Assembly: GCF_000025925.1 (NCBI RefSeq)
Contig: NC_014033.1
Location: 1,650,001-1,682,000, forward strand
Length of the DNA: 32,000 nt
Direction of reading: 5' to 3'
Source: Xylanibacter ruminicola 23
GTDB taxonomy: Bacteria > Bacteroidota > Bacteroidia > Bacteroidales > Bacteroidaceae
The notes under the pieces were generated by a model that saw only the letters and a program-made list of their open reading frames with translations, searched no databases and was not told where the DNA came from. The position numbers and the translations under genes were made by a program. Shown in pieces: positions 5,694 to 29,856 of the stretch (within the stretch, counting starts at the first letter, position 1; each line of letters begins with the position of its first letter).

Positions 5694-7562
5694 TTACTTA
5701 GAATAAACCTTTCCTTCTACAGGTTTGGTGTACCAGTTGGTAGAGAGGATTGGATTGCTGCCCCAGTTATTAAATTCTGTATAGGCATCCTTAATACAAA
5801 CTTTCTCTGTGGGATACTTAAAGTCGAAAGGAATCATGATTCCATGAGGATCCTGCCCCTTTGTCGACAGTTTAATAGCCAGATTGGTTGTCAAGTCGTA
5901 AATAAACGGCTGATTCTCGGCATCCAAGAAACTGAACGATTCACTAACAGTCTTCTGAGCGGTGATAGCAGCATGTTTCTCTGCGCCGCTTTCAGTATTC
6001 ACAAACTGCTTAGCACCCACGCCAAAGAGCGAATGGATCTCTACATTGTCCTGAATAACACCTGCATTAATGTTTCTAACGCAAAGTTCATCGTATGCAC
6101 CACACGCCACAATCGAATACTCTACGGTTGTTTTATTAATACGTTTTGCCTTAATCACAATGTCGTTCAAGTCATAATCACCTTTCTTAGTATCCTCGAA
6201 ACAGAAAGTATAGGTATTATACTCAAACTCGTGAGTTGTATAAATAGGCTCAACACTCCCTTCAACTTCCAAAAGGATATCATTAAAGTCTCTATCAGTA
6301 CCAGATTCCCAACACATCAAAACGCGGTCGTTAATCTTTAGCCACGTGGCACGAGGATCAGTTGGATTGAGTTTATTGAAGTTTGGCCATGTATTAATCT
6401 TGTTATTTAGACGACCATCAAAATATAACTCGCCTTGTTTTTTAGGTGCCTCTGTAACAGTCTTGGCCCGTATCATAAAACCAATCTTATAGCCTTTCGG
6501 GAATTTAAACGTACCTTCAGTTCCGATAGTTGGCGTTTTGCTATCACCAAAATAAAGCGCAGCAAAGGATGCTTTCTTTGCAAGGATATCATCTTCTTTA
6601 TATTCAAAACACAAATTAAATGGAATCAACTTATATTTTGGCAGACTCTTCAGGAAGGCTACTTGTTCATCTGCCGTGCTTGGCATATCAGCAGGGTTGA
6701 AATAATAATAGTACAAGTCTGAATTATACACCTCATTACCATATTTATCTGCACCATCTTGCTTATATATTGGCGATACAACAATTGGTCCCTCCTCACC
6801 TGTTGTAATACGATACGCATCATCATCCGTATAACCAGCCGCCATAATCTGAATCAAGTTGTTTTCTTGTTTAGTTGGAGGCAAGTATGCGAAAACCAAG
6901 TCTCGAACTAAGGCCTTATATTCATCAGAGTATGGGTCTGCAGCAATCTTCATACGGTCATAATCGGCATCAGAAAGCATATATAGTCTCTCATCAGGAA
7001 TCCAGCCACGTTTAGCTGCAAACGAAGTATCAATCTTACTAATGGCGAAAGTACCAGAAGGAGCCGAAACGGTGCGGGTTACAGCTCTGGTTTTAGCTGC
7101 AACCTGATCAAACGTAACACTATTTCCTTCTACCTTTTTATAATAGCAACCTTTTTCGGTATAGAAAGCTACATATAATCCTTCGTTCTTTTTGGGAACA
7201 TCATAATTCAAGGTAACAGACGACTGATTATTGGTTTCGGCCTGATTCAATATGGTCATTGAATTATAAGTCTCACCCTCTTCGTCAGTCTGAGCTACCA
7301 TAGCCATCACAGATACCTTTGTAACTGCCGAGGTGACATTGATTGTAATAGTGCCGCTTTCGGTAGAAATCCAATCCTGATTGGCTGGAATTGTAATACC
7401 CAAAACGCCTTCAGCATGCTGCTTAATCTCCTCATCAGTTACTTCTGGATCCGTAGGAGTCGTTTCTGGCGTTGGTTCTTGAATTGGCTCCGACCCATCA
7501 AAGCCTTTTACACAGCCTGATAACACTAAACCTAAAAGTGCTAATGATAGTAACTTTTTCAT
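5694..7562 (-). CDS. LruC-domain (DUF4842-like) surface lipoprotein, paralog 1
   Basis: 622 aa. Signal peptide and lipobox MKKLLSLALLGLVLSGC, then the Pro/Thr/Glu linker EPIQEPTPETTPTDPE. C-terminal blocks are DLYYYYFNP, GYKIGFMIR, YTFCFEDTKKGDYDLNDIVIK and PHGIMIPFDFKYPTEKVCIKDAYTEFNNW. Confidence 0.85.
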   Translation of the reverse strand: MKKLLSLALLGLVLSGCVKGFDGSEPIQEPTPETTPTDPEVTDEEIKQHAEGVLGITIPANQDWISTESGTITINVTSAVTKVSVMAMVAQTDEEGETYNSMTILNQAETNNQSSVTLNYDVPKKNEGLYVAFYTEKGCYYKKVEGNSVTFDQVAAKTRAVTRTVSAPSGTFAISKIDTSFAAKRGWIPDERLYMLSDADYDRMKIAADPYSDEYKALVRDLVFAYLPPTKQENNLIQIMAAGYTDDDAYRITTGEEGPIVVSPIYKQDGADKYGNEVYNSDLYYYYFNPADMPSTADEQVAFLKSLPKYKLIPFNLCFEYKEDDILAKKASFAALYFGDSKTPTIGTEGTFKFPKGYKIGFMIRAKTVTEAPKKQGELYFDGRLNNKINTWPNFNKLNPTDPRATWLKINDRVLMCWESGTDRDFNDILLEVEGSVEPIYTTHEFEYNTYTFCFEDTKKGDYDLNDIVIKAKRINKTTVEYSIVACGAYDELCVRNINAGVIQDNVEIHSLFGVGAKQFVNTESGAEKHAAITAQKTVSESFSFLDAENQPFIYDLTTNLAIKLSTKGQDPHGIMIPFDFKYPTEKVCIKDAYTEFNNWGSNPILSTNWYTKPVEGKVYSK

Positions 7563-11914: not shown

Positions 11915-14071
11915 TTACTCACGCAATTTCGCCCAATACACAGTTCCAGTCATTTTATGCTGACTCTTAAAGCGGTATTCTGGACGATTCAAGAAGGCAC
12001 CTATTTTACGGAAGGTATTACTTTCTTCCTTGTAGCCTTTAAACGATTGTTTCAAGATGGCGGAGATATCCTTAAGCGACATCCATTGAGCATCAGAATC
12101 GTTGTCTACAGGACGCTGCAACACTGCCATCAACATCTCGCCAAGACCACTAAGTTGCTGATAACTAAGGTTTCGCTGTATCAGTTGCTGTTCCTGTTCG
12201 CGAGTTGGCCAATAGCGTTCGCCGTTATGAATTTCGTGTAGTAATTGAGCGTAGAGCTGAGGGTAATCCACAGGTGTTCTAAAGTCAACATCACCCTCAA
12301 CCATCACACAGATAAAACGGCGGGCACCACTAGGATCGGTCAGCGGCATCATCTCGTTAGTGGTTCCAATGAACGATGCAAAACGTCGATGTTCCGAATA
12401 AGCCTTTCCGTACGGAGGACGATATTTCAAATCGGCTGTAGATACTAAATATTTTAATACAATCTGTTGACGCTGGGTTATCTTATCAAACTCGTCGAGA
12501 TTAATCAAGCCAAACGACGTCAGACCTAAGTTCAAATCGGTCTCGTTCTTAAAATTGATGCGATCATTATAGTAATCGCGCAACTGCTGGGGAAGTAAAA
12601 TTCTACAGAACGATGATTTACCACATCCCTGGCGACCAATCAACAGTGGCACCAACGAGTTACCTGTAAGTTGACCTTTACCCATCCACATGGCCACCAT
12701 CGAACGCATCCACAGATGGAACAGTGCAGGCCATTCCTCGTAACTGGTGGGGATGCGACGAGCCAAGACCTCTACCCTATCCTTGCCATCCCATTTTGGC
12801 AGACTATCCAGATACTCGTTCATGGGATCGTAAAGCTCAATATCATCCGAGTTCACATAACGACGGATATCTTTATCCCAACATTTAATGCCTTGACGTA
12901 ACGCTCTCATTGTAATAGAGTTACGAGCCTCCTCTGTTAAGTCACGAAAAGAGAATCCGATGCCAGTACGCTCTCTAAATTCAGCCACGCCACGCATCAC
13001 ATTTTTACGAATCTCGTAGTTCTCGTTCAGAAACAAATCTATCTTCATCGTCAACAGTGTTTCCTGTGGTATATTCTTCTCTGGTTTATAGCCATTACGC
13101 TCCTGGTAGCGTTTCACAGCCTGAGGACGATATACATTATCGAATACCTTATTAATTAGCAGGTCATCGTCGCCAATAGCGTAAGTACGATAACGAGCCA
13201 TACGCTTAGCTATAGCCATCGGGATGCCTGTTTCCAGACAATGGACAGCCAATCTAGTTAGCAGCTCGTGCTCCAAATCCTCACCTTCCAATCCTTCGCA
13301 TTCATCGTAGGCCTTACTCAGATTAAACTCAAAGATATGGTGCATGGTAAAGTAACGACTCTGTCCCAATTGCTCGTCATCTTTTTCTAACGTCGATGGG
13401 CGTACCAACGACAGCGTCAGATTAGGCTTTTCGGCACGGGCATAAAAGGGAATAGCCATCGGATTGAAAACCACATCGGCATCAGTACTTATATAACAAG
13501 TACGATCCATACGTGGTTCCAGTTTCTCAATCATCACACCCAACTGAGCATTATAAGCCAAACGGGCTCGCTCATACAGATTCTCATGAAAATCGGCTAT
13601 CTCATTGGGCTCCGTTGGCAACGGATAATTGGTGTCTTTGTTGCGATCACTGGGAAACAGTTCACCCTTACAAATGATTTTTACGCTACGCCCAGAAGCG
13701 CCCACAAATGCCATCAGTGTTTGAGGCACTTCGCCTGCACCAGTTCGGATAGCATCAGCCTCATCATAACCTGTTAGGTTATTTACTTCCAACAGTACCA
13801 TGCCGGTATAACCCAAGGTTACACGCTGATGATTACGATTCTCCATTTCTGTAGCAAAACAGATACGTGGCAGCTTGGCTATAGTCATATCGGCACCGCT
13901 CACCGAGCCATCAGGCTGTCTGGTCAGGTCGAACACAGGATATAGACGACGAAGCTCATCTACTGTATGGCGATATTCATTGCCAACAATCATTTCTACG
14001 ATATCCGTCAGTTCAAGCACACGCAGTGTTTCGGTCTGGCGATAGTTTTTTATAAGGGTTATCTTTGTCAT
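11915..14071 (-). CDS. VapE/VirE-family P-loop NTPase (primase-helicase-like, BT4734-type N-terminal region)
   Basis: 718 aa. Walker A is LIGRQGCGKSSF and Walker B is GLINLDEFD. Overall size and layout match the Bacteroidales VirE_N + VapE + C-terminal DUF proteins I recall. No integrase or other mobility genes are visible nearby. Confidence 0.8.
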   Translation of the reverse strand: MTKITLIKNYRQTETLRVLELTDIVEMIVGNEYRHTVDELRRLYPVFDLTRQPDGSVSGADMTIAKLPRICFATEMENRNHQRVTLGYTGMVLLEVNNLTGYDEADAIRTGAGEVPQTLMAFVGASGRSVKIICKGELFPSDRNKDTNYPLPTEPNEIADFHENLYERARLAYNAQLGVMIEKLEPRMDRTCYISTDADVVFNPMAIPFYARAEKPNLTLSLVRPSTLEKDDEQLGQSRYFTMHHIFEFNLSKAYDECEGLEGEDLEHELLTRLAVHCLETGIPMAIAKRMARYRTYAIGDDDLLINKVFDNVYRPQAVKRYQERNGYKPEKNIPQETLLTMKIDLFLNENYEIRKNVMRGVAEFRERTGIGFSFRDLTEEARNSITMRALRQGIKCWDKDIRRYVNSDDIELYDPMNEYLDSLPKWDGKDRVEVLARRIPTSYEEWPALFHLWMRSMVAMWMGKGQLTGNSLVPLLIGRQGCGKSSFCRILLPQQLRDYYNDRINFKNETDLNLGLTSFGLINLDEFDKITQRQQIVLKYLVSTADLKYRPPYGKAYSEHRRFASFIGTTNEMMPLTDPSGARRFICVMVEGDVDFRTPVDYPQLYAQLLHEIHNGERYWPTREQEQQLIQRNLSYQQLSGLGEMLMAVLQRPVDNDSDAQWMSLKDISAILKQSFKGYKEESNTFRKIGAFLNRPEYRFKSQHKMTGTVYWAKLRE

Positions 14072-14281
14072 ATTGCTATTGATGATTAATTACGGATGCA
14101 AAGATAATAAATAAAAATATGATTTCCAAAAGAAAATAATAAAAAATAATGTCATAACGTCATATTACGTATAATTTACTGATTTCCAAGATGTTAATAT
14201 ATGATATCATGATGTCATAACAATAATTATGATGTCATATACCAATCACACTGATAAGTGTTAGAATATATTTCTTCGGCA

Positions 14282-14318
14282 GAAACACAGTGTTTCCAAT
14301 GGCGAAACACTGTGTTTC
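14282..14318. promoter_or_regulatory. Twin perfect 15-bp palindromes GAAACAC-N-GTGTTTC, centres 22 bp apart
   Basis: GAAACACAGTGTTTC (14282-14296) and GAAACACTGTGTTTC (14304-14318) are separated by caatggc. Each has 7-bp perfect arms, and the second is the exact reverse complement of the first. Confidence 0.6.
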
Positions 14319-14465
14319 GATTGATGGGACATAGTGTACTGATAATTAGAATAATGATAGCAGGCCTAAATATGACGTTAAGAAAAATACAATCATATAA
14401 TATCATCATTTATAAATCACTAAATATCAATAAGTTATTTCAGAAATGACATTATGAAATTAAAA

Positions 14466-14497
14466 TTTGGATATTTCACAGAAAATTTGTAACTTTG
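14466..14497 (+). promoter_or_regulatory. Promoter of small Cys-rich paralog A
   Basis: AAAATTTGGAT with TTTG at 14466-14469, a 20-nt spacer, then TAACTTTG at 14490-14497. The ATG follows at 14521. Confidence 0.6.
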
Positions 14498-14520
14498 CAC
14501 CAACAAAACAACCATACTAT

Positions 14521-14955
14521 ATGAATAAAGAAGAATGCCTCCGTGCGCAAGCCGCACATAACTTACCGTGTTTTATACACGAGTGTCCACTACACCAGAC
14601 CTGTCTGCACTGGCTAACAGGTCAATACTATGGTAGCGACTTCCATGTAGTTACCAGTGTTAATCCTTACTACCCCAACGTGAACTCACTGCAATGCACC
14701 TTGTATCAAAAGGATGAGATTGTTACCTACGCCATCGGCATTAAGCACATTTTTGATGACATTCCCTATCCTATTGCACGTATTGTTAAGAAACGCCTCA
14801 TCGCACTCTTTTCGCGTAAGCGTTTCTACGAGTATCGCAACGGCACACGTCCCATTCCTCCAAAAGACCAACAGCACATTGCCCGTATCTTCCACGAAGA
14901 AGGTTGGGATGGAGAAATCCGCTACGACGATTGGAAAGAAGACTATCAGTGGTAA
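14521..14955 (+). CDS. Small Cys-rich protein of unknown function, paralog A (about 145 aa)
   Basis: The track ORF begins at a TTG (14467), which lies inside the predicted promoter, so the ATG at 14521 (MNKEECL...) is preferred. It aligns by eye with the 143-aa ORF at 28385-28816 on C-x4-CP-x4-CL, VNP, C.(L/F)Y, F.R..(Y/F)E.R.G.R...PKD, and Y..Y.W at the C-terminus. Confidence 0.75.
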   Translation: MNKEECLRAQAAHNLPCFIHECPLHQTCLHWLTGQYYGSDFHVVTSVNPYYPNVNSLQCTLYQKDEIVTYAIGIKHIFDDIPYPIARIVKKRLIALFSRKRFYEYRNGTRPIPPKDQQHIARIFHEEGWDGEIRYDDWKEDYQW

Positions 14956-26100: not shown

Positions 26101-28143
26101 GAAAACCTCGATTTTTTCGCCATCAAAATATTTTGTACGGAATCCCCATCCATTGTGAGAATGGTTTGCATACAAAGTGGCGTTTACATTTGTAGATGGA
26201 AAAGCATTTGAAGCAAAAACATCAGGAGATGTACTTCTACATATGATATGATTCAGAGAAGAACAACCTTTGAATGCATTTCCATATACAAATTTAAGTT
26301 GCGATGGAAGGTTTACTATACGCAAATTCAAACAATTATTAAATGCATCACTTCCGATAACAAGATAAGGGGCTGACGATTCTTTATCATCTTCGAACGT
26401 CAACGTATAACATTTTGCATTATTGAAAACACTATTATCAACAGCAACAACCTTATACTGCCCAAGAGTCTTAGGTATAACAAGATCAACAGTTTCTTTA
26501 CTACCACCAGTTATTATAGCTTCTTTTGAGTCTGTCGAATATATATACTTCCAATCACCATCACTATCAGCAACTGGAGTGCCTTCCATTGTTAAAGCGA
26601 ATCCCGTCCAATTATAGTTTCCCTTTTTACCATTAGGAACATAAAGATATCTTGCATTGTTAAATGTTCCACTATAATCGGGCTGTATTGCAGCTTTACT
26701 TACGACTCTAACAAGTCCAGAGCAGCCACTAAATGCATTCGCACCGATAGCAGTAACATTTTCAGGGATAGTCAATTCTATTATTCCTGATTGGTTTTTA
26801 AAAGCTTCCTTGTCTATACCAGTAACTTTATAAGTTTGGGGAATTTCAACAATTCCACTTGCAGTGCATCGTAACAATGTCGCCTGTTTATCAGCATCAT
26901 TAGAAGCGTTAACGCAAACAAAAGTAAATTTGTTATTACCTTTATAAACATCATCAGTTAACATATCGCCAATAAAAATTCTGGCACCGAAAAAAGTCTT
27001 CCACGTATCATTCACATAGTCTTCTTTAGGAGCATAAAGAGTCATCATTGGATTAGCAGTAGCAGGAGGAAAACTATATTTATTGTTTGATGCATCGCAA
27101 ACAATAAGTATATCTTCCGCTTTCTGAACTTTACACCACACATGTTTTAAATTGCTGCAGCCAACAAAAGCATTTATACCAATTGTTCTCAAACTCGCAG
27201 GCAATGTAAGCAGTTCCAATTGGGCACAATTCTGGAAAGCAGACTCTCCTATCGAAATTAGTGAAGTAGGGAGAGTCAAAGAGTTTAAATTTGTCCAGTT
27301 GTAAAAAGCCCGATTACAAATTGTTTCTATACCATTCTGAATTTCAAGAGTATTGAAACTTACAAATGGATTGGTATTATTGTTTTCAAAAGCATAACTT
27401 CCGATACATACAACATCATAATCTTCCTTATTATTCTCATCTAAAACTCTTTCTACTTTGTTCTTTACAGTTATCTTGCCTGGGGTTTCTATAGAATTCG
27501 CACCCGATAACAAAGTCGCTTTTTTATCAACACTTGCACCCACATATGTAGTTCCGTCTTTCGTAAAATAATTCATATCGCCCACATATATTCTATTACC
27601 AAATATATTATTCCAATCTGTAACTAACGAATATGCAGACTTCGCTTCGGATGATGGAACATAAAGTGTTGCATAATTATTATTATTAAGAGAATTGGGG
27701 AATTTTTTTAGGATAAACTCCTGTGGTGTATTCTTAGCACATCGCACATGAGTCAAACGACCACAGCCTCCAAACGCATTTGTACCAATAGATTCCAAAC
27801 TATTGGGTAAATCTAGCAATTGTAAGTTTGAATTGTTACTAAATGCATCTTTTCCTATCGTCTTGACATTTTCCTCAATCTTTAAATATCTGATAGAAGA
27901 ATTGTCTTTAAAAGCACCCTCTCCAATAGCGGTTACATCAACACCTCCTGCTACAGGGATAGTACTAGGAATCACAACTTCCCTTTCTGGAAAGCTCTTT
28001 CCATCTACCAACGTTGCCCTTGTACCTTCATTATCAGTGATATACTGATATTTAATTCCTGTATCAGGATCCGTATAATCACTTTGGGCCATAATGGTCA
28101 TCGAGGTTAGTAAACTAAGCAATAAAAAAAGACTCTTCTTCAT
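17125..28143 (-). CDS. Giant BspA-type leucine-rich-repeat (LRR_5) surface protein with T9SS C-terminal sorting domain
   Basis: Continuous 11-kb ORF, 3,679 aa from the ATG at 28164. The ATG at 28143 gives the signal peptide MKKSLFLLLSLLTSMTIMAQS and is preferred because the -7 box ends at 28172. About 22 modules have the form V..IG..AF..C..L..(I/V).LP.SL..IG..AF.GC..L, each ending in ATLYVP....Y....W. The C-terminus FDVYNLQGRKVKANTTTFSGLPAGVYIVNGKKVMVK resembles a type-A T9SS CTD. Confidence 0.93.
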   Translation of the reverse strand: MKKSLFLLLSLLTSMTIMAQSDYTDPDTGIKYQYITDNEGTRATLVDGKSFPEREVVIPSTIPVAGGVDVTAIGEGAFKDNSSIRYLKIEENVKTIGKDAFSNNSNLQLLDLPNSLESIGTNAFGGCGRLTHVRCAKNTPQEFILKKFPNSLNNNNYATLYVPSSEAKSAYSLVTDWNNIFGNRIYVGDMNYFTKDGTTYVGASVDKKATLLSGANSIETPGKITVKNKVERVLDENNKEDYDVVCIGSYAFENNNTNPFVSFNTLEIQNGIETICNRAFYNWTNLNSLTLPTSLISIGESAFQNCAQLELLTLPASLRTIGINAFVGCSNLKHVWCKVQKAEDILIVCDASNNKYSFPPATANPMMTLYAPKEDYVNDTWKTFFGARIFIGDMLTDDVYKGNNKFTFVCVNASNDADKQATLLRCTASGIVEIPQTYKVTGIDKEAFKNQSGIIELTIPENVTAIGANAFSGCSGLVRVVSKAAIQPDYSGTFNNARYLYVPNGKKGNYNWTGFALTMEGTPVADSDGDWKYIYSTDSKEAIITGGSKETVDLVIPKTLGQYKVVAVDNSVFNNAKCYTLTFEDDKESSAPYLVIGSDAFNNCLNLRIVNLPSQLKFVYGNAFKGCSSLNHIICRSTSPDVFASNAFPSTNVNATLYANHSHNGWGFRTKYFDGEKIEVFKSNEETYAGTYIGWSREGSKTAALVRGVPVSGKSDLVINSPVSGNESYSIAVIGVAAFKKCTSINSIKLPNTLTAIDAEAFNGCTNITDIEIESSPFPITDDVFSNYSASLFVPNATGYLTTDGWNNFKEENTYEGLKIVGKDKDELYTLLYGSKGKKAKLIGLQVKKEEIALPHEIQVFIPADNSTKDLEVKKIAFINNGLTNKTTLKKLEIGDGINYVGEMAFKGCTNLKELKLPASIKSIGDMAFDECPIVTIVSKIPGLDLPIIAPTVFSNPIPLVSFFIPEGAYDDYIDVNKGGWVRFKDKYIEGDKDNCPDDNDPNMQYEFFTNNNTAILTHVLRAPEGKDILEIQPYVTILGNDYRVIGVRDNACKNTTEKNKIKNLKIVADITSIGESAFAGCTGLNKVWLPSTLENIGVNAFNGCTAITHIGCNAVAPPSISENSFAQTTNPVYLLVPDEAGDAYANNTYWKQGKKIFKGRFVNEKAKDDDDRPLTFICLEHETVTQNDEGENVSNITRTAILTKSTTSIAEVDIPAKVTFDDQPYNVTIIDESAFGGSSKLENLTIPESIEAIGDKAFATCTNLKNVVCKIQSPLFISDNVFYKTTLGKIPAALYVPETSFETYTGDGANAVEWQKFPLIHKGLRITPTTEIGLTYEYATGESEATLINAEATSNSVTVNEFIDDANYGRKYVKVIASSAFSSTKNNIIKTLTIQEGINTIGENAFSGCTGLTELTLPSTLTEIGAGAFCNSVALKTIYCDINKDIDGKLIEYNDNIFPASFNVKTEIFIPEGSISAYQGQDGWKTYFDNYIEGRRIPEAKADGDYAKMTFEFMTGDHTATLKYVTELDVTEDGLVRIPGNVLYDGKTYTVKKIGGSVFRNVDKSKIKKLEIQRPQDDPQKYIQTIIDANAFDGCGKLETIWLPSTLTSIGAEAFKGCTAITHIGCMAETPADISDNSFPQTTNTIYLLVPDGAKNDYVNKDYWIQGGRKIFEGKFINVKSTDDADQPLSFICLDHKNDEGEYVPGTAILTKSTTSKADVVIPPTVSINGNTYTVTIIDESAFGSSSKLENLTIPERIESIGDNAFATCTNLKNVSCKIANPLSISDNVFYKTTSGQILAALYVPETSFEAYTGDGANAVEWKKFPLIYKGLRITPTTATGLTYEYATGESEATLIKAEATSNSVDVDEFIDDADYGRKFVKTIAASAFSSTKNNSIKILTIPEGVNTIGENAFSGCTGLTELTLPSSLTEIGAGAFCNSVALKTIYCDIDKDIDGNLIQYNDNIFPASFNTQTEVFVPEGSISAYQGQDGWKAYSAYYVEGRRIPNTPAEDYPTMVFEFLTGAKKATLTNITSIEAVDDEDGLIKVPGTVKYDNKYYEVNTIGQDIFKNVDKSKIKKLEIQDGVQTISANAFDGCNNLKIVWLPYSLVKIGDNAFRGCNSITHIGCLANKVPIISESTFPKYSAYLIVHSERKDAYLQNKYWHKFVEERDQVFEGEFIDAFNYKDVNYICVEDVNGKSAILTSSSDDVVIPDKIPLGNNDYNVTTIAEYAFENNKNITKAELPSTIKVVGAYAFQNCTNLEEVKLPSNLTNISTATFKGDNKLESITLSQNLEKIGDDAFSGCAGLTQIEFPNTLTHIGVNAFNGNTNLESMVLPNGIKEIKEQAFQNCSSIKKIELPASLTNLGVDIFDGCSSLTEVISKTKDSDVFSKISAQSVPNAILYVPDGTAELYSAWDFLYTLEGDYKFAPDVDGLEYAYTISEKSGNKAILIGVAKDGINEDGIVTIPSKVTLGEGNDAAKCDVIAVGKDAFRGNLNLKRLEIKTSLKIVGENAFSDCSNLSEIICIDYNKHLNALSQFDILLYVPDSDIKNLYVDAGWKSNHIYVGDRQEKKFEDGLVYSFTAGGSEAILIGVWDKDKAIDKNGTVTIPDFIEFKVNEADEDKKKFNVISIANSVFKDNTDVKMVKIGENIVSISENAFEGCTNLKEIVSKIANPSSIAFSKPDAILFIADAGLYNDYKATWDVAYILVGDRSRYQSTDGLYYTCATGDKVAILIEGKTSDMNEDVVIPPSIAFKVNENDENNTTFNVVAIAENAFKGNTDMRTLKIGEKVQSIGASAFQGCIGLNKIWLPESLESIAGKAFYGCSEIDYLCTMRKTPLASPNVSSDAFPAFKSTSTLYVPCGTIDDYNASEVWQACPIRKEGTFVNERSLNGLTFECVINDKDETVAQLVKVVATKNVDIPSIVQLKNDEAKYMVTTICTDAFKDCKNVETIVLPESLKSIADNVFAQCTKLLIITSKISKDNLFSFKKNVFPKAIYENATVYIPYDEDGSTKAEYKNTEGWMYFDNWAQGEKKTAPVGSMTYEFLKGVGTATLIGTTVDKEVVTIDGTVEFEGESYKVTTISESVFKNNPNKGKMTQLKIAKNITTIGAYAFQSCSNLKTVWLPSTLTTIGQKAFDGCKAITRVSSSIENPVENEANYFPNDATLYIPKGAKEKYNVSGWNNVSYVAEGEFVDVCVDNGNTYDCLKIDGKCKAILRKYAASSNDVVIPSSVKLGENYTVAIIGKSAFANKNTITSLIIPAGVENIDADVFSACSKLKWIESKIVNPISISNVFANTNATLFIPSSNNVSDYKARGWNFLNVFVGERKQTDVDGWTYVYSTGDKKAVLTRVGNVGKNVTINGTFKIGKDEYTVTSVGDAVFKGKSNIEALTIAKSIENIGANAFEGCVNLVSITCEGSSPAKLGADAFPSANVTVNVPNDAVNTYKNHPDWKPFANNILGITTSVEDDPTGAYNIIVPAGGDATPEVEIWSGLDASGDVVIPEVVELNGSDYKVTGIAANAYDSNTDLTSIVIPSSITSIGASAFAGCTNLKSITVYCVTPINLSAVAATRRALTRAGGSSSVFEGVNKETCILYVPAESIDAYKQAEGWKDFKKIYAIGTNAINGIVVSEGKPFDVYNLQGRKVKANTTTFSGLPAGVYIVNGKKVMVK
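21918..24962 (-). repeat. In-frame tandem duplication inside the LRR gene: two units of 1,524 and 1,521 nt
   Basis: Unit boundaries fall at the repeated peptide NVDKSK|IKKLEIQ (encoded at 21909-21917 and 23433-23441) and TEKNK|IKNLKIV (~24954-24962). For example, 22257-22740 aligns with 23781-24264 at a constant offset of 1,524 nt with only scattered substitutions. A more diverged partial third unit continues below 21917. Confidence 0.85.
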
Positions 28144-28171
28144 ATCTATAGCGTTTTTATACATTTGGGGA

Positions 28172-28203
28172 CAAAGGTAAGAAAAATATCGATGTTTCCC
28201 AAA
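28172..28203 (-). promoter_or_regulatory. Promoter of the giant LRR gene
   Basis: The minus strand reads AAAATTTGG with TTTG at 28200-28203, a 20-nt spacer, then TACCTTTG at 28172-28179. This is the same architecture as the promoters at 14466 and 14986. Confidence 0.6.
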
Positions 28204-28240
28204 TTTTAAATGTTAAATCTATAAATTTATATTAGTGCAG

Positions 28241-28371
28241 GTTAGTGCGTACTGCAGTGCGCAAATAAACGTACAGCAATACGCCAGTAAGCGTACTGCA
28301 GTGCGGAAGGCGGCATACTGTAGTACGGATTAGCCGCACTACATGCGGAAACATGCCGTACTACTCGTTGA
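28241..28371. repeat. Array of six degenerate ~22-bp tandem repeats with an imperfect 16-bp palindromic core (GCGTAC-TGCA-GTGCGC)
   Basis: Cores are GCGTACTGCAGTGCGC (28246), ACGTACAGCAATACGC (28268), GCGTACTGCAGTGCGG (28290), GCATACTGTAGTACGG (28312), CCGCACTACATGCGG (28333) and CCGTACTACTCG (28355). Start-to-start spacing is 22, 22, 22, 21, 22. The array is a GC-rich island in AT-rich intergenic DNA. Confidence 0.8.
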
Positions 28372-28384
28372 GACTATCTCAGCA

Positions 28385-28816
28385 CTAATCGTTCCAATTA
28401 TAAAGCTGCTCATAGGCATCGAAGCCGAGGTGCTGCATGCCGATTTCCTTCAGAACATTCTTTATGATCATTATATCCTTGGGCGAACAAAGCCTCTCCC
28501 CTCGCCTACGTTCGAAATATCCCGTACGACCGAATTTACCTTGAAGTCTGCATGAGAACGTCTTATATTGCCTTGGCAACATCTCTTCCTGCATCTTTGC
28601 AAATCCACGAGCAAATGTCTGAGGCTCGTCTGAACGGTAGAATTCGCACTTTTCCGATGGTTCCGTAAATAAGGGATTCACTATTTGCACTATCTTGTAT
28701 TTCTTGGTTAGCACATTCGTGGCCATTTGACGAAGACAGTGAGCGGCCATCGGACAGTCAGACTTGATACAAAGTGTATAATAGTCTGGTACTTCTTTAC
28801 TACTGATTGTATTCAT
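28385..28816 (-). CDS. Small Cys-rich protein of unknown function, paralog B (143 aa)
   Basis: Homologous by eye to the ORF at 14521-14955: LCIKSDCPMAAHCL, VNP, KCEFY, GYFERRRGERLCSPKD, YEQLYNW. It starts 9 nt after the stop of the upstream 280-aa ORF, so the two are probably co-transcribed. Confidence 0.75.
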   Translation of the reverse strand: MNTISSKEVPDYYTLCIKSDCPMAAHCLRQMATNVLTKKYKIVQIVNPLFTEPSEKCEFYRSDEPQTFARGFAKMQEEMLPRQYKTFSCRLQGKFGRTGYFERRRGERLCSPKDIMIIKNVLKEIGMQHLGFDAYEQLYNWND

Positions 28817-28825
28817 ATTTGTTGA

Positions 28826-29668
28826 TTATTTAAATACTTGCGGTTTACATATCGGCACCTCCATACGCCGTATTTTTAGTTCATGAGCCTCAGTTATATT
28901 TCGCTGCATAAACTTTACAGAGAAATAGTTCATAACCCATTTCAATATGGCATCACTTTCCCAGTTCTCAATACCAACTCGTCGGGCTATGTGATGCGTT
29001 ACTTTTTCGTCTAGATAGAAAAGCAAATCCTCCTTGGCGACATATTCTGGCACCCTGTACTTTCTAGCATAGGCTTGGGTAAATTCACCGAAATAACGAT
29101 TATAATAGGCTTCGTTTAAAAATAACGTCATAAATCCTTTATGTATGCGTTTAAGAGCCTCATCGCTTGCTTCTACATGAAACTTAGGCACGTTACCAGC
29201 CAATAACATATGCATATTGATACCATGACGATGTTGACGCTGATTCTCAGAGATCTTGTCGCGATCGTTATCGTTGGCCAATGCATTGGCCTTACAATCG
29301 AATATCTCGTATGGTATAGCCGGCTCTTCAATCTCCTGGCTTGGCAAAGCCACAAAACGGTCACCCACCAAGGGCGACATAAACGCATCCATCTGATGCG
29401 TTTCTCTGTTACGAACGATACGAAAAGCTTCAGCTTTCTCTATCAGTTCTATTAGTTCCGAATCTTGCTTGAACCCGAGCGCCTTGCGCAGTTTATTAAA
29501 GTGCATGCGAGTATAGGCCAACGTTACATCGTCCATATACTCGTAAGCCCCATCGAAAAGATATTTAATCTTTCCGATTTCCGACCACGAAAGTTTATGA
29601 GCGCGCCAGTGGCGATTATAGCTGCGGGCGCTCGTAGCAGCTATAGCCATATCCGTTTTATGTCTCAT
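28826..29668 (-). CDS. Hypothetical protein (280 aa), no family recognised
   Basis: Long ORF with ordinary, non-repetitive composition, no signal peptide and no TM segment. Tightly coupled to the downstream paralog B gene. Confidence 0.65.
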   Translation of the reverse strand: MRHKTDMAIAATSARSYNRHWRAHKLSWSEIGKIKYLFDGAYEYMDDVTLAYTRMHFNKLRKALGFKQDSELIELIEKAEAFRIVRNRETHQMDAFMSPLVGDRFVALPSQEIEEPAIPYEIFDCKANALANDNDRDKISENQRQHRHGINMHMLLAGNVPKFHVEASDEALKRIHKGFMTLFLNEAYYNRYFGEFTQAYARKYRVPEYVAKEDLLFYLDEKVTHHIARRVGIENWESDAILKWVMNYFSVKFMQRNITEAHELKIRRMEVPICKPQVFK

Positions 29669-29690
29669 CGATTAATTTTTATTTATTGAT

Positions 29691-29729
29691 TAGGCCCTAT
29701 TTATAGGATAGGGCCTATCGTATAGGCCT
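29691..29729. repeat. GC-rich inverted repeat TAGGCCCTAT / ATAGGGCCTA plus a third partial copy
   Basis: Perfect 10-bp arms at 29691-29700 and 29708-29717 with the 7-nt loop TTATAGG. TATAGGCCT recurs at 29721-29729. The element lies in the divergent intergenic region, 23 nt upstream of the ATG at 29668. Confidence 0.6.
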
Positions 29730-29856
29730 TTAAAGAAAAGTTCGGTATTTCCCGAAGTTGATTATCTGGCTACAAATATACACATTTTCTATGAAACCAC
29801 CAAATAATCTTCCACATTTTTTGGATAATTCAAAGAAAAAAACTACCTTTGCAGCA

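Follow-up and report, generated by a model that had tools for sequence, protein, structure and literature searches.

At positions 28231-28384 of the window, the whole 32,000-nt stretch of Xylanibacter ruminicola 23 DNA analysed here (contig NC_014033.1, positions 1,650,001 to 1,682,000), imperfect palindromes phased at 22 bp fill the space between the stop codon of a 143-aa DUF6078 gene and the promoter of a gene whose 3,679-aa product carries BspA-type leucine-rich repeats (LRR). This array is one copy of a repeat family dispersed across the Bacteroidales, and the resident copy trails the DUF6078 gene: it is linked to the 3' end of that gene, is independent of the gene that lies downstream, and has cores that are under selection together with a fixed 22-nt phase. 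On balance, the array is probably an order-wide, 22-bp-phased and dyad-symmetric series of predicted binding sites, for which DUF6078 would be the most likely binder.

Sequence, phasing and parts of the array

The units of the array have the core GYACT-NN-AGTRC and form dyad-symmetric, imperfect palindromes of 12-16 bp. Base autocorrelation over 28231-28384 peaks at lag 22 with a value of 0.50, the runner-up lag reaching 0.35, and 0.50 was attained by none of 5000 shuffles, whether at lag 22 or anywhere in the lag range 10-40. Tandem Repeats Finder reports a period of 22 at 28248-28305 with a score of 74, and a repeat search returns a 3-copy family at spacings of 22/22 with many palindromes at the array. 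The phased array described in an earlier sequence-only reading of this DNA is confirmed. Within the 32-kb window the 16-mer unit, allowing up to three mismatches, is confined to the array (four matches at two sites, with 0.12 expected), and the best cores, GCGCACTGCAGTACGC, do not occur elsewhere in it. Six units had been proposed; their start positions hold to within 1 nt and their spacings hold as well, but the sixth of them is a half-unit only, and the array is composed of a half-unit, five full units and a terminal half-site. The parts are listed below in the direction of DUF6078 transcription, with coordinates given as window positions; L001-L272, used further on, are labels of fetched comparison loci.

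28385-28816, minus strand: DUF6078 gene, 143 aa (the earlier "paralog B"), Pfam PF19555, E = 1.5e-33, with four invariant Cys
28385-28387, minus strand: stop codon of the 143-aa DUF6078 gene
28370-28380, minus strand: short hairpin GAGA-TAG-TCTC, GAGATAGTCTC, directly past the stop and ahead of the first unit; read from the sequence
28356-28364, minus strand (gene sense strand): unit 1, the half-unit GTAGTACGG, complementary to the left half of unit 3
28334-28348, minus strand: unit 2, CCGCATGTAGTGCGG, in 22-nt phase with its neighbours, 21 nt here
28313-28328, minus strand: unit 3, CCGTACTACAGTATGC
28291-28306, minus strand: unit 4, CCGCACTGCAGTACGC
28269-28284, minus strand: unit 5, GCGTATTGCTGTACGT, with the most degenerate core of all
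28247-28262, minus strand: unit 6, GCGCACTGCAGTACGC (plus strand GCGTACTGCAGTGCGC)
28231-28241, minus strand: terminal half-site, CCTGCACTAAT, where the conserved module ends; strain-variable DNA lies past it
28172-28206, minus strand: promoter of the LRR gene, TTTG ... -7 box TACCTTTG, adjoining the array and outside the module; read from the sequence

The stretch from the stop codon to the first unit has a mean pairwise identity of 0.81 in one clade, and a GAT[AG][GA]T-type sequence occupies the position of the post-stop hairpin in 17 of 63 non-redundant homologous flanks. GTAGTACGG and CCGTACTAC form an inverted repeat of 9 nt that is 100% complementary across a 27-nt gap, exactly the long-range pairing that had been predicted. 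At the position of the terminal half-site, related strains carry CCCGTACT or CCTGTACT, followed by unrelated sequence. The promoter boxes of the giant gene were also found where the sequence-only reading had placed them, with the Bacteroides-type -7 box TACCTTTG at 28172-28179 and TTTG at about 28200-28203, and the array lies about 30-210 bp upstream of these boxes.

Linkage to the DUF6078 gene and dispersal across the Bacteroidales

The identical 143-aa protein is encoded at ten public loci, and the array directly follows the stop codon in all ten. Only at two of them, L003 (GCA_019973335.1, contig BPTT01000001.1, identical to the window) and L010, is the LRR gene next, while in the other eight unrelated sequence past the terminal half-site leads to DUF4114 and DUF4842 genes. 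Arrays of close strains differ by insertions or deletions of exactly one 22-nt unit, and alignment places one extra 22-nt unit at the distal end of the array in the window and L010 as compared to L001, L002 and L141. Among named organisms, the protein has its closest relative in Prevotella sp. FD3004, and homologues with 68-77% identity again have a phased array straight after the stop in unrelated gene contexts, which include a convergent tRNA synthetase gene or glycosyltransferase genes. A metagenome scan added 80 further loci. Linkage was measured on 78 DUF6078 hits for which 200 nt or more were available downstream, by counting phased GYACT within 250 nt after the stop codon: at least two were present at 62 and at least three at 46 of the 78 loci, as against 0 of 71 upstream control regions. 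Two of the 78 hits are low-scoring second paralogues without arrays, the remaining loci by eye mostly have degenerate arrays or arrays with GGACT..AGTCC cores, and L163 is clearly without an array. Overall, an array lies just past the stop in nearly all of about 76 DUF6078 homologues (57-100% identity), and this linkage spans three Bacteroidales families, with Prevotellaceae, Bacteroidaceae and Parabacteroides named as hosts. A second DUF6078 member of the window, paralog A at 14467-14955, is 26% identical to the 143-aa protein.

The gene that follows the array varies. Among 64 homologous loci, 29 are followed by a convergent gene and only 3 by one of the LRR type, the 5' untranslated region (UTR) string of the LRR gene, CAAATGTATAAAAACGCTA, occurs at 5 of 272 fetched loci, and most DUF6078 arrays have no LRR-type promoter downstream. 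Alignment of orthologous intergenic regions, which had been suggested as a check on a regulatory role at the LRR promoter, went against that role, as the array is retained while the downstream gene is swapped. Since the array is kept with exchanged downstream genes, nearly half of which are convergent, control of the LRR gene from upstream cannot be its conserved function. The CAAATGTATAAAAACGCTA 5'-UTR, at 28150-28180 in the window, is itself conserved and is found again 3' of a DUF6078 array in L202, L212 and L214, whose proteins are 58-60% identical, and a long hairpin with a T-run after it can be seen by eye in L202 between the array and the LRR-type promoter.

Dispersal was followed with a three-unit pattern (GYACT N3 GTA, N11, GYACT N3 GTA, N11, GYACT) in one genome per GTDB species, amounting to 596 Gb. 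It matched at least 120 loci, with about 2 estimated by chance at equal base frequencies, and the motif family occurs scattered over many unrelated intergenic positions in Bacteroidales genomes, which the sequence-only reading had given as a refutation of its locus-specific regulator. About 110 among the matches listed are from named Bacteroidales, the host groups being Bacteroidaceae, Phocaeicola, Prevotella, Paraprevotella, Alloprevotella, Mediterranea and Parabacteroides, and Phocaeicola plebeius DSM 17135 has six and Ca. Prevotella equi four of the listed loci. The longest arrays comprise 10-13 units (L028, L032), and the order-wide consensus is about GTACTSSAGTACTTCCNNGGAA, in which two AGTACT hexamers stand 8 bp apart and the next pair follows 14 bp on. 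Dispersed arrays are mostly intergenic; among the matches listed, 41 have convergent, 25 tandem and 9 divergent flanking genes, with a median distance of 107 bp to flanking 3' ends and of 254 bp to 5' ends. The 96 neighbours among these matches whose 3' end faces an array belong to 123 unrelated Pfam families, mostly housekeeping. DUF6078 leads these with 8 of 96 and is the sole neighbour to be enriched, and the 25 neighbour Pfam families listed include no transposase family. Thirteen of the 120 listed arrays adjoin DUF6078, always at its 3' end. At four Ca. Prevotella equi loci (L029, L054, L080 and L105) the whole 22-mer, including the spacer, is common to all, and no conserved flanks, terminal inverted repeats, leader or tail were seen past the array at these four loci of one genome.

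The pattern also matches 54 IMG/VR viral contigs, most of them with Bacteroidaceae-type arrays. Phage or prophage arrays (L219-L272) are located at recurring internal positions, for example at 1100-1148 in L230 and 591-639 in L243 (one contig), and some adjoin accessory genes (AbiC-like, DUF4747, DUF2335) and lie near a tape-measure gene. In L070, about 200 nt upstream of an array at 7001-7115, the Bacteroides small RNA family BTnc049 has a sub-threshold match (6693-6797; 74 bits, with 81.9 as the gathering score). The window itself has a second 22-bp-phased palindrome trio with a different core at 14283-14345, consisting of AAACACAGTGTTT, AAACACTGTGTTT and GGACATAGTGTAC, about 170 bp upstream of the paralog A promoter in the region divergent with the VapE-like gene, and short ATGTCATA-type repeats are present at about 14150-14240.

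Upstream of DUF6078, and separated from it by 9 bp, is a 280-aa gene (28826-29668, minus strand), which occurs only in the close lineage of the window; L011-L018 lack it and have DUF6078 on its own. Its product has only a sub-threshold match to DUF6625 and none in PHROGs, NCBIfam or PADLOC. The leader of the operon with DUF6078 contains TATA-loop hairpins, GGCCCTATCCTATAAATAGGGCC in the window (29675-29730) and AAGCCCCTATAAGGGGGCTT in L015 and L017 (about 2400-2500); Tandem Repeats Finder flags 29680-29726 in this leader, and in L011 a long G+C-rich inverted repeat occupies about 2300-2490 of it.

The window locus is a very plastic surface-protein locus. About 16.3 kb of it (roughly 11.94-28.23 kb) is absent from L004 and L009, and this segment contains a VapE-like/BT4734-N gene (11915-14071), DUF6078 paralog A, a BACON-domain gene and the LRR gene. 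The empty site reads CCCGTACT joined to TAGTGTATT, and the corresponding window junctions read CCTGCACT joined to AATATAAA and CTGGAACT joined to GTGTATTGG; these sequences have only a short GNACT core in common. In L001 and L005, by contrast, the BACON gene lies directly beside the promoter region of the 280-aa gene. The array ends could conceivably be preferred points of recombination, with a single case to go by.

Probable form of recognition, the DUF6078 protein and rival explanations

Selection was assessed in one clade with unambiguously alignable arrays, taking 4-fold degenerate sites of the adjacent gene as the neutral reference. Mean pairwise identity amounts to 0.847 in the cores, 0.637 in the spacers and 0.676 at the 4-fold sites (Mann-Whitney p = 1e-5); thus, the cores are conserved above the neutral rate while the spacers drift. 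Of 190 pairs of successive GYACT, 81 are spaced by exactly 22 nt, compared to 0 of 116 pairs in shuffled sequence. Several observations bear on whether DNA or RNA is read. Variation in one half of a unit is independent of that in the other (Fisher p = 0.55), hairpin covariation within units was rejected, and changes compatible with G-U pairing are similar for both strands (T/G 37 vs C/A 31). The positions T5 and A8, which would lie in the loop of a hairpin, have T/A as their commonest pair (120 of 187 units). Nor do dispersed copies keep a consistent orientation to transcription: 9 share that of the upstream gene and 13 have the opposite one. In dispersed arrays, neighbouring units whose centres are informative form direct repeats in 43 and inverted ones in 4 cases, and DUF6078-linked arrays have 6 direct and 4 inverted. 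Independent halves, the T5/A8 pair, mixed orientation and direct repeats together favour recognition of double-stranded DNA over that of an RNA hairpin, and the favoured form is a symmetric protein that would recognise degenerate RYACT half-sites in an array acting as double-stranded DNA.

The working model is built on these features. The cores would serve as pairs of half-sites for a sequence-specific dimeric protein, and a spacing of about two helical turns would align several dimers on one side of the DNA; sites for dimeric binders at this spacing, as in the sequence-only reading, are still plausible from conserved cores, free spacers and fixed phase. The likeliest binder would be DUF6078, encoded immediately upstream of the array, and binding might create a boundary or insulator at gene ends or else contribute to the upkeep and spread of arrays. 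That DUF6078 itself binds the array is put forward tentatively, as a possibility short of an even expectation.

A profile search of 1.84 billion representative proteins identified 1,049 relatives of DUF6078 (clusters at 50% identity), and the best 150 of these 1,049, of about 65-180 aa, have no fused domain informative on function. In the wider family C16, C21 and C27 do not vary and C57 hardly does, and the B-type subfamily has a strongly conserved basic segment, FGRTGYFERRRG. A nuclease site built on invariant acidic residues was considered and dropped because D63, E102 and D114 vary in the wider family. With a shallow alignment, AlphaFold modelled residues 1-62 poorly and the Foldseek matches of that model were meaningless; a deep alignment gave a confident model (predicted local distance difference test, pLDDT, 95; predicted template modelling score, pTM, 0.83). 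DUF6078 has no sequence match in PDB, PHROGs, NCBIfam or PADLOC and only its own family in Pfam, and no relation to HUH/Y1 transposases is detectable. Arrays at L210, L215 and L218 have GGACT/AGTCC cores, and the proteins linked to them all carry T98N, G99P and R105K in FGRTGYFERRRG. The change to GGACT..AGTCC is symmetric in both core halves and is seen as well in the tails of the arrays of L028 and L032. This combination fits cognate recognition and may be taken as a hint of it.

A number of points weigh against the model of DUF6078 binding to double-stranded DNA. The three GGACT-linked homologues form a single clade, hence the co-variation of protein and array counts as one event. Foldseek comparison of the pLDDT-95 model with solved structures gave no significant match (best E = 2), and with predicted viral structures only weak ones, the best being a 58-aa phage protein at E = 0.06, with several HTH_XRE proteins following at E > 0.8. 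Among the matches listed, about 90% of dispersed arrays are not beside DUF6078, and phage contigs hold arrays without a DUF6078 gene in the fetched stretches. For the window copy, folding is better than in shuffled sequence on both strands (z = -4.2 and -6.5). Lastly, the array is very probably transcribed as the 3' UTR of the DUF6078 mRNA, because a terminator-like site between stop codon and array was found at 0 of 56 loci.

The last two points are those expected of an element that works at the RNA level, as a structured 3' UTR of DUF6078 and other genes, whose tandem hairpins would lend stability to the transcript, make transcription pause or end, or be the target of an RNA-binding protein. 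Such an explanation appears unlikely, even though it accommodates several observations: the array starts 0-40 nt past the stop, a canonical terminator follows it in L011 and L169 (in L202 it is the hairpin and T-run seen by eye), a terminator-like hairpin with a T-run lies inside 10 of 56 arrays, perfect 13-16-bp inverted repeats from neighbouring units are present in some arrays, and dispersed copies favour gene 3' ends and convergent pairs. Against it stand the mixed orientation of dispersed copies, the lack of covariation within units, the equal G-U-compatible change on both strands and the mostly direct order of neighbouring units, and in the window copy the antisense strand folds better than the sense strand. 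Rfam at gathering score has no match in the window, at E up to 10 it yields only chance-level matches over 28100-28500, and over the arrays at eight other loci only a chance-level mir-12 match (E = 0.85, L058). A tRNA/tmRNA scan found none, and the sigma-70 promoter/terminator scan of 27900-28900 gave no terminator-like site for the window copy. Of the structured RNA considered in the sequence-only reading, the 9-bp pairing stands, without an Rfam hit, a strand preference or covariation within units to accompany it. A selfish minisatellite or repeat resembling MITEs (miniature inverted-repeat transposable elements), devoid of host function, spreading or being homogenised within genomes and tolerated since an old insertion at the DUF6078 3' end, is quite improbable. 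It would explain why entire 22-mers with their spacers are common to separate Ca. Prevotella equi loci, why unit number changes by exact 22-nt indels between close strains and why copies occur on phage contigs, and it has precedents in MITEs common to Bacteroides or Prevotella and their phages, as surveyed (PMC11602168), and in BrickBuilt, a dispersed 23-nt minisatellite of Porphyromonas gingivalis (PMC4596501). It agrees poorly with spacers at neutral divergence beside cores and a 22-nt phase conserved above it in DUF6078-linked arrays, with linkage to DUF6078 across three Bacteroidales families, with no terminal inverted repeats, leader or tail being seen beyond the cores, and with no transposase among the listed neighbour families.

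The two remaining explanations are both highly improbable. The model of the sequence-only reading, in which the array, bound by the 143-aa or the 280-aa protein, would activate or silence the 3,679-aa LRR gene from upstream, is largely refuted. The array does lie upstream of the LRR promoter boxes, and the order DUF6078, array, LRR-type 5' UTR recurs in L202, L212 and L214, but the array tracks the 3' end of DUF6078 and not the promoter downstream: another gene follows it in 8 of the 10 loci with the identical protein, LRR-type genes are rare and convergent ones frequent among the 64 homologous loci, the hairpin and T-run seen by eye in L202 separate array and promoter, and the repeat family adjoins 123 unrelated gene families. 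A hotspot of recombination or integration, with the terminal half-site as the attachment or crossover point for cassettes and islands, would fit with the start of the extra 16.3 kb (relative to L004/L009) directly past this half-site and with phage contigs that have arrays beside accessory genes (AbiC-like, DUF4747). However, the junctions have a common core of just about 3-5 bp, the extra segment shows no integrase gene, the argument rests on one junction pair, and a boundary between conserved and variable DNA is expected at any gene end.

Relation to known repeat systems and significance

Among the possibilities raised in the sequence-only reading, a cluster of extragenic palindromes similar to repetitive extragenic palindromes (REP) and bacterial interspersed mosaic elements (BIME) came closest to the outcome and was essentially right, though incomplete. 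Like REP/BIME, the array family consists of short imperfect palindromes able to form stem-loops, is extragenic and multi-copy with a bias to 3' ends and convergent genes, and has sequence variants between genomes; moreover, one protein gene characteristically flanked by repeats, as in the partnership of REP with REP-associated tyrosine transposases (RAYT), has its parallel in DUF6078. Unlike REP/BIME of Enterobacteria and Pseudomonas, the family is strictly 22-bp tandem and is restricted to Bacteroidales. Units do not alternate in the BIME manner, being mostly direct (43 vs 4), and alternation as a general rule was rejected, although some arrays hold long perfect inverted repeats. The GTAG/CGTC tag of REP was not seen regularly in the arrays, whose core is GTAC-based, and the candidate partner is a 143-aa four-cysteine protein without detectable relation to HUH/Y1 transposases. 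Given REP-like behaviour without these tested REP/RAYT features, the family is best placed among dispersed extragenic palindromes, as a variant of its own with a candidate partner.

Other systems share fewer properties. Centromere and iteron arrays, such as F sopC with SopB and R1 parC with ParR, have phased dyad repeats beside a small gene whose product binds cooperatively, and the DUF6078 arrays resemble them in phased tandem repeats, conserved cores, free spacers and an adjoining conserved small gene. They differ in being chromosomal with many copies elsewhere in the genome, and no partition ATPase or ParA-like gene is present among the called genes of the loci examined. Operator or upstream activating arrays similarly have palindromes phased by whole turns, here upstream of a promoter in this strain, whereas the DUF6078 arrays are conserved with the upstream gene and not with a promoter, 29 of 64 loci being convergent downstream. 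CRISPR arrays, with identical repeats, unique spacers and cas genes, and the RNA repeats of type III toxin-antitoxin systems, of 34-36 nt and upstream of a ToxN-like gene, are unlike them in view of the 22-nt period, the degenerate units and the location of the array 3' of the gene, and PADLOC has no matches for DUF6078 or the 280-aa protein. Within the Bacteroidales, BrickBuilt of P. gingivalis is a dispersed minisatellite MITE with 19 copies in one strain (PMC4596501). It is likewise intergenic and dispersed, with tandem repeats of about 22-23 nt in variable number, but its repeat, AGAYCATARTATCCTCTCRTRTG, is unrelated and has no spacer between repeats, and its leader, tail and terminal inverted repeats similar to those of insertion sequences are not seen at the arrays.

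A literature search found no description of DUF6078 or of the array family, and DUF6078 as a candidate partner protein of the array family appears unreported. In its widest form, the proposal would make DUF6078 a new class of small Zn- or Fe-binding, sequence-specific nucleic-acid binders with a fold absent from PDB, which would read GYACT-NN-AGTRC arrays genome-wide and maintain or spread them, or use them as boundaries; this wider proposal is regarded as doubtful. If true, DUF6078 and its array would be to the Bacteroidales what the REP-RAYT pair is to its own hosts, and would be made up of unrelated components.

In the gut of humans and ruminants the Bacteroidales dominate, and dispersed intergenic repeats have, as far as found, been described in them only for the Porphyromonas MITEs. 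Present in many genera and in phages, at the ends of genes and the borders of strain-variable islands, the array family could influence transcription boundaries, mRNA fate or genome plasticity. For annotation, such arrays ought not to be taken for promoter-specific operators, and their link to DUF6078 offers a testable handle on a family of more than 1,000 clusters (50% identity) without known function or fold.

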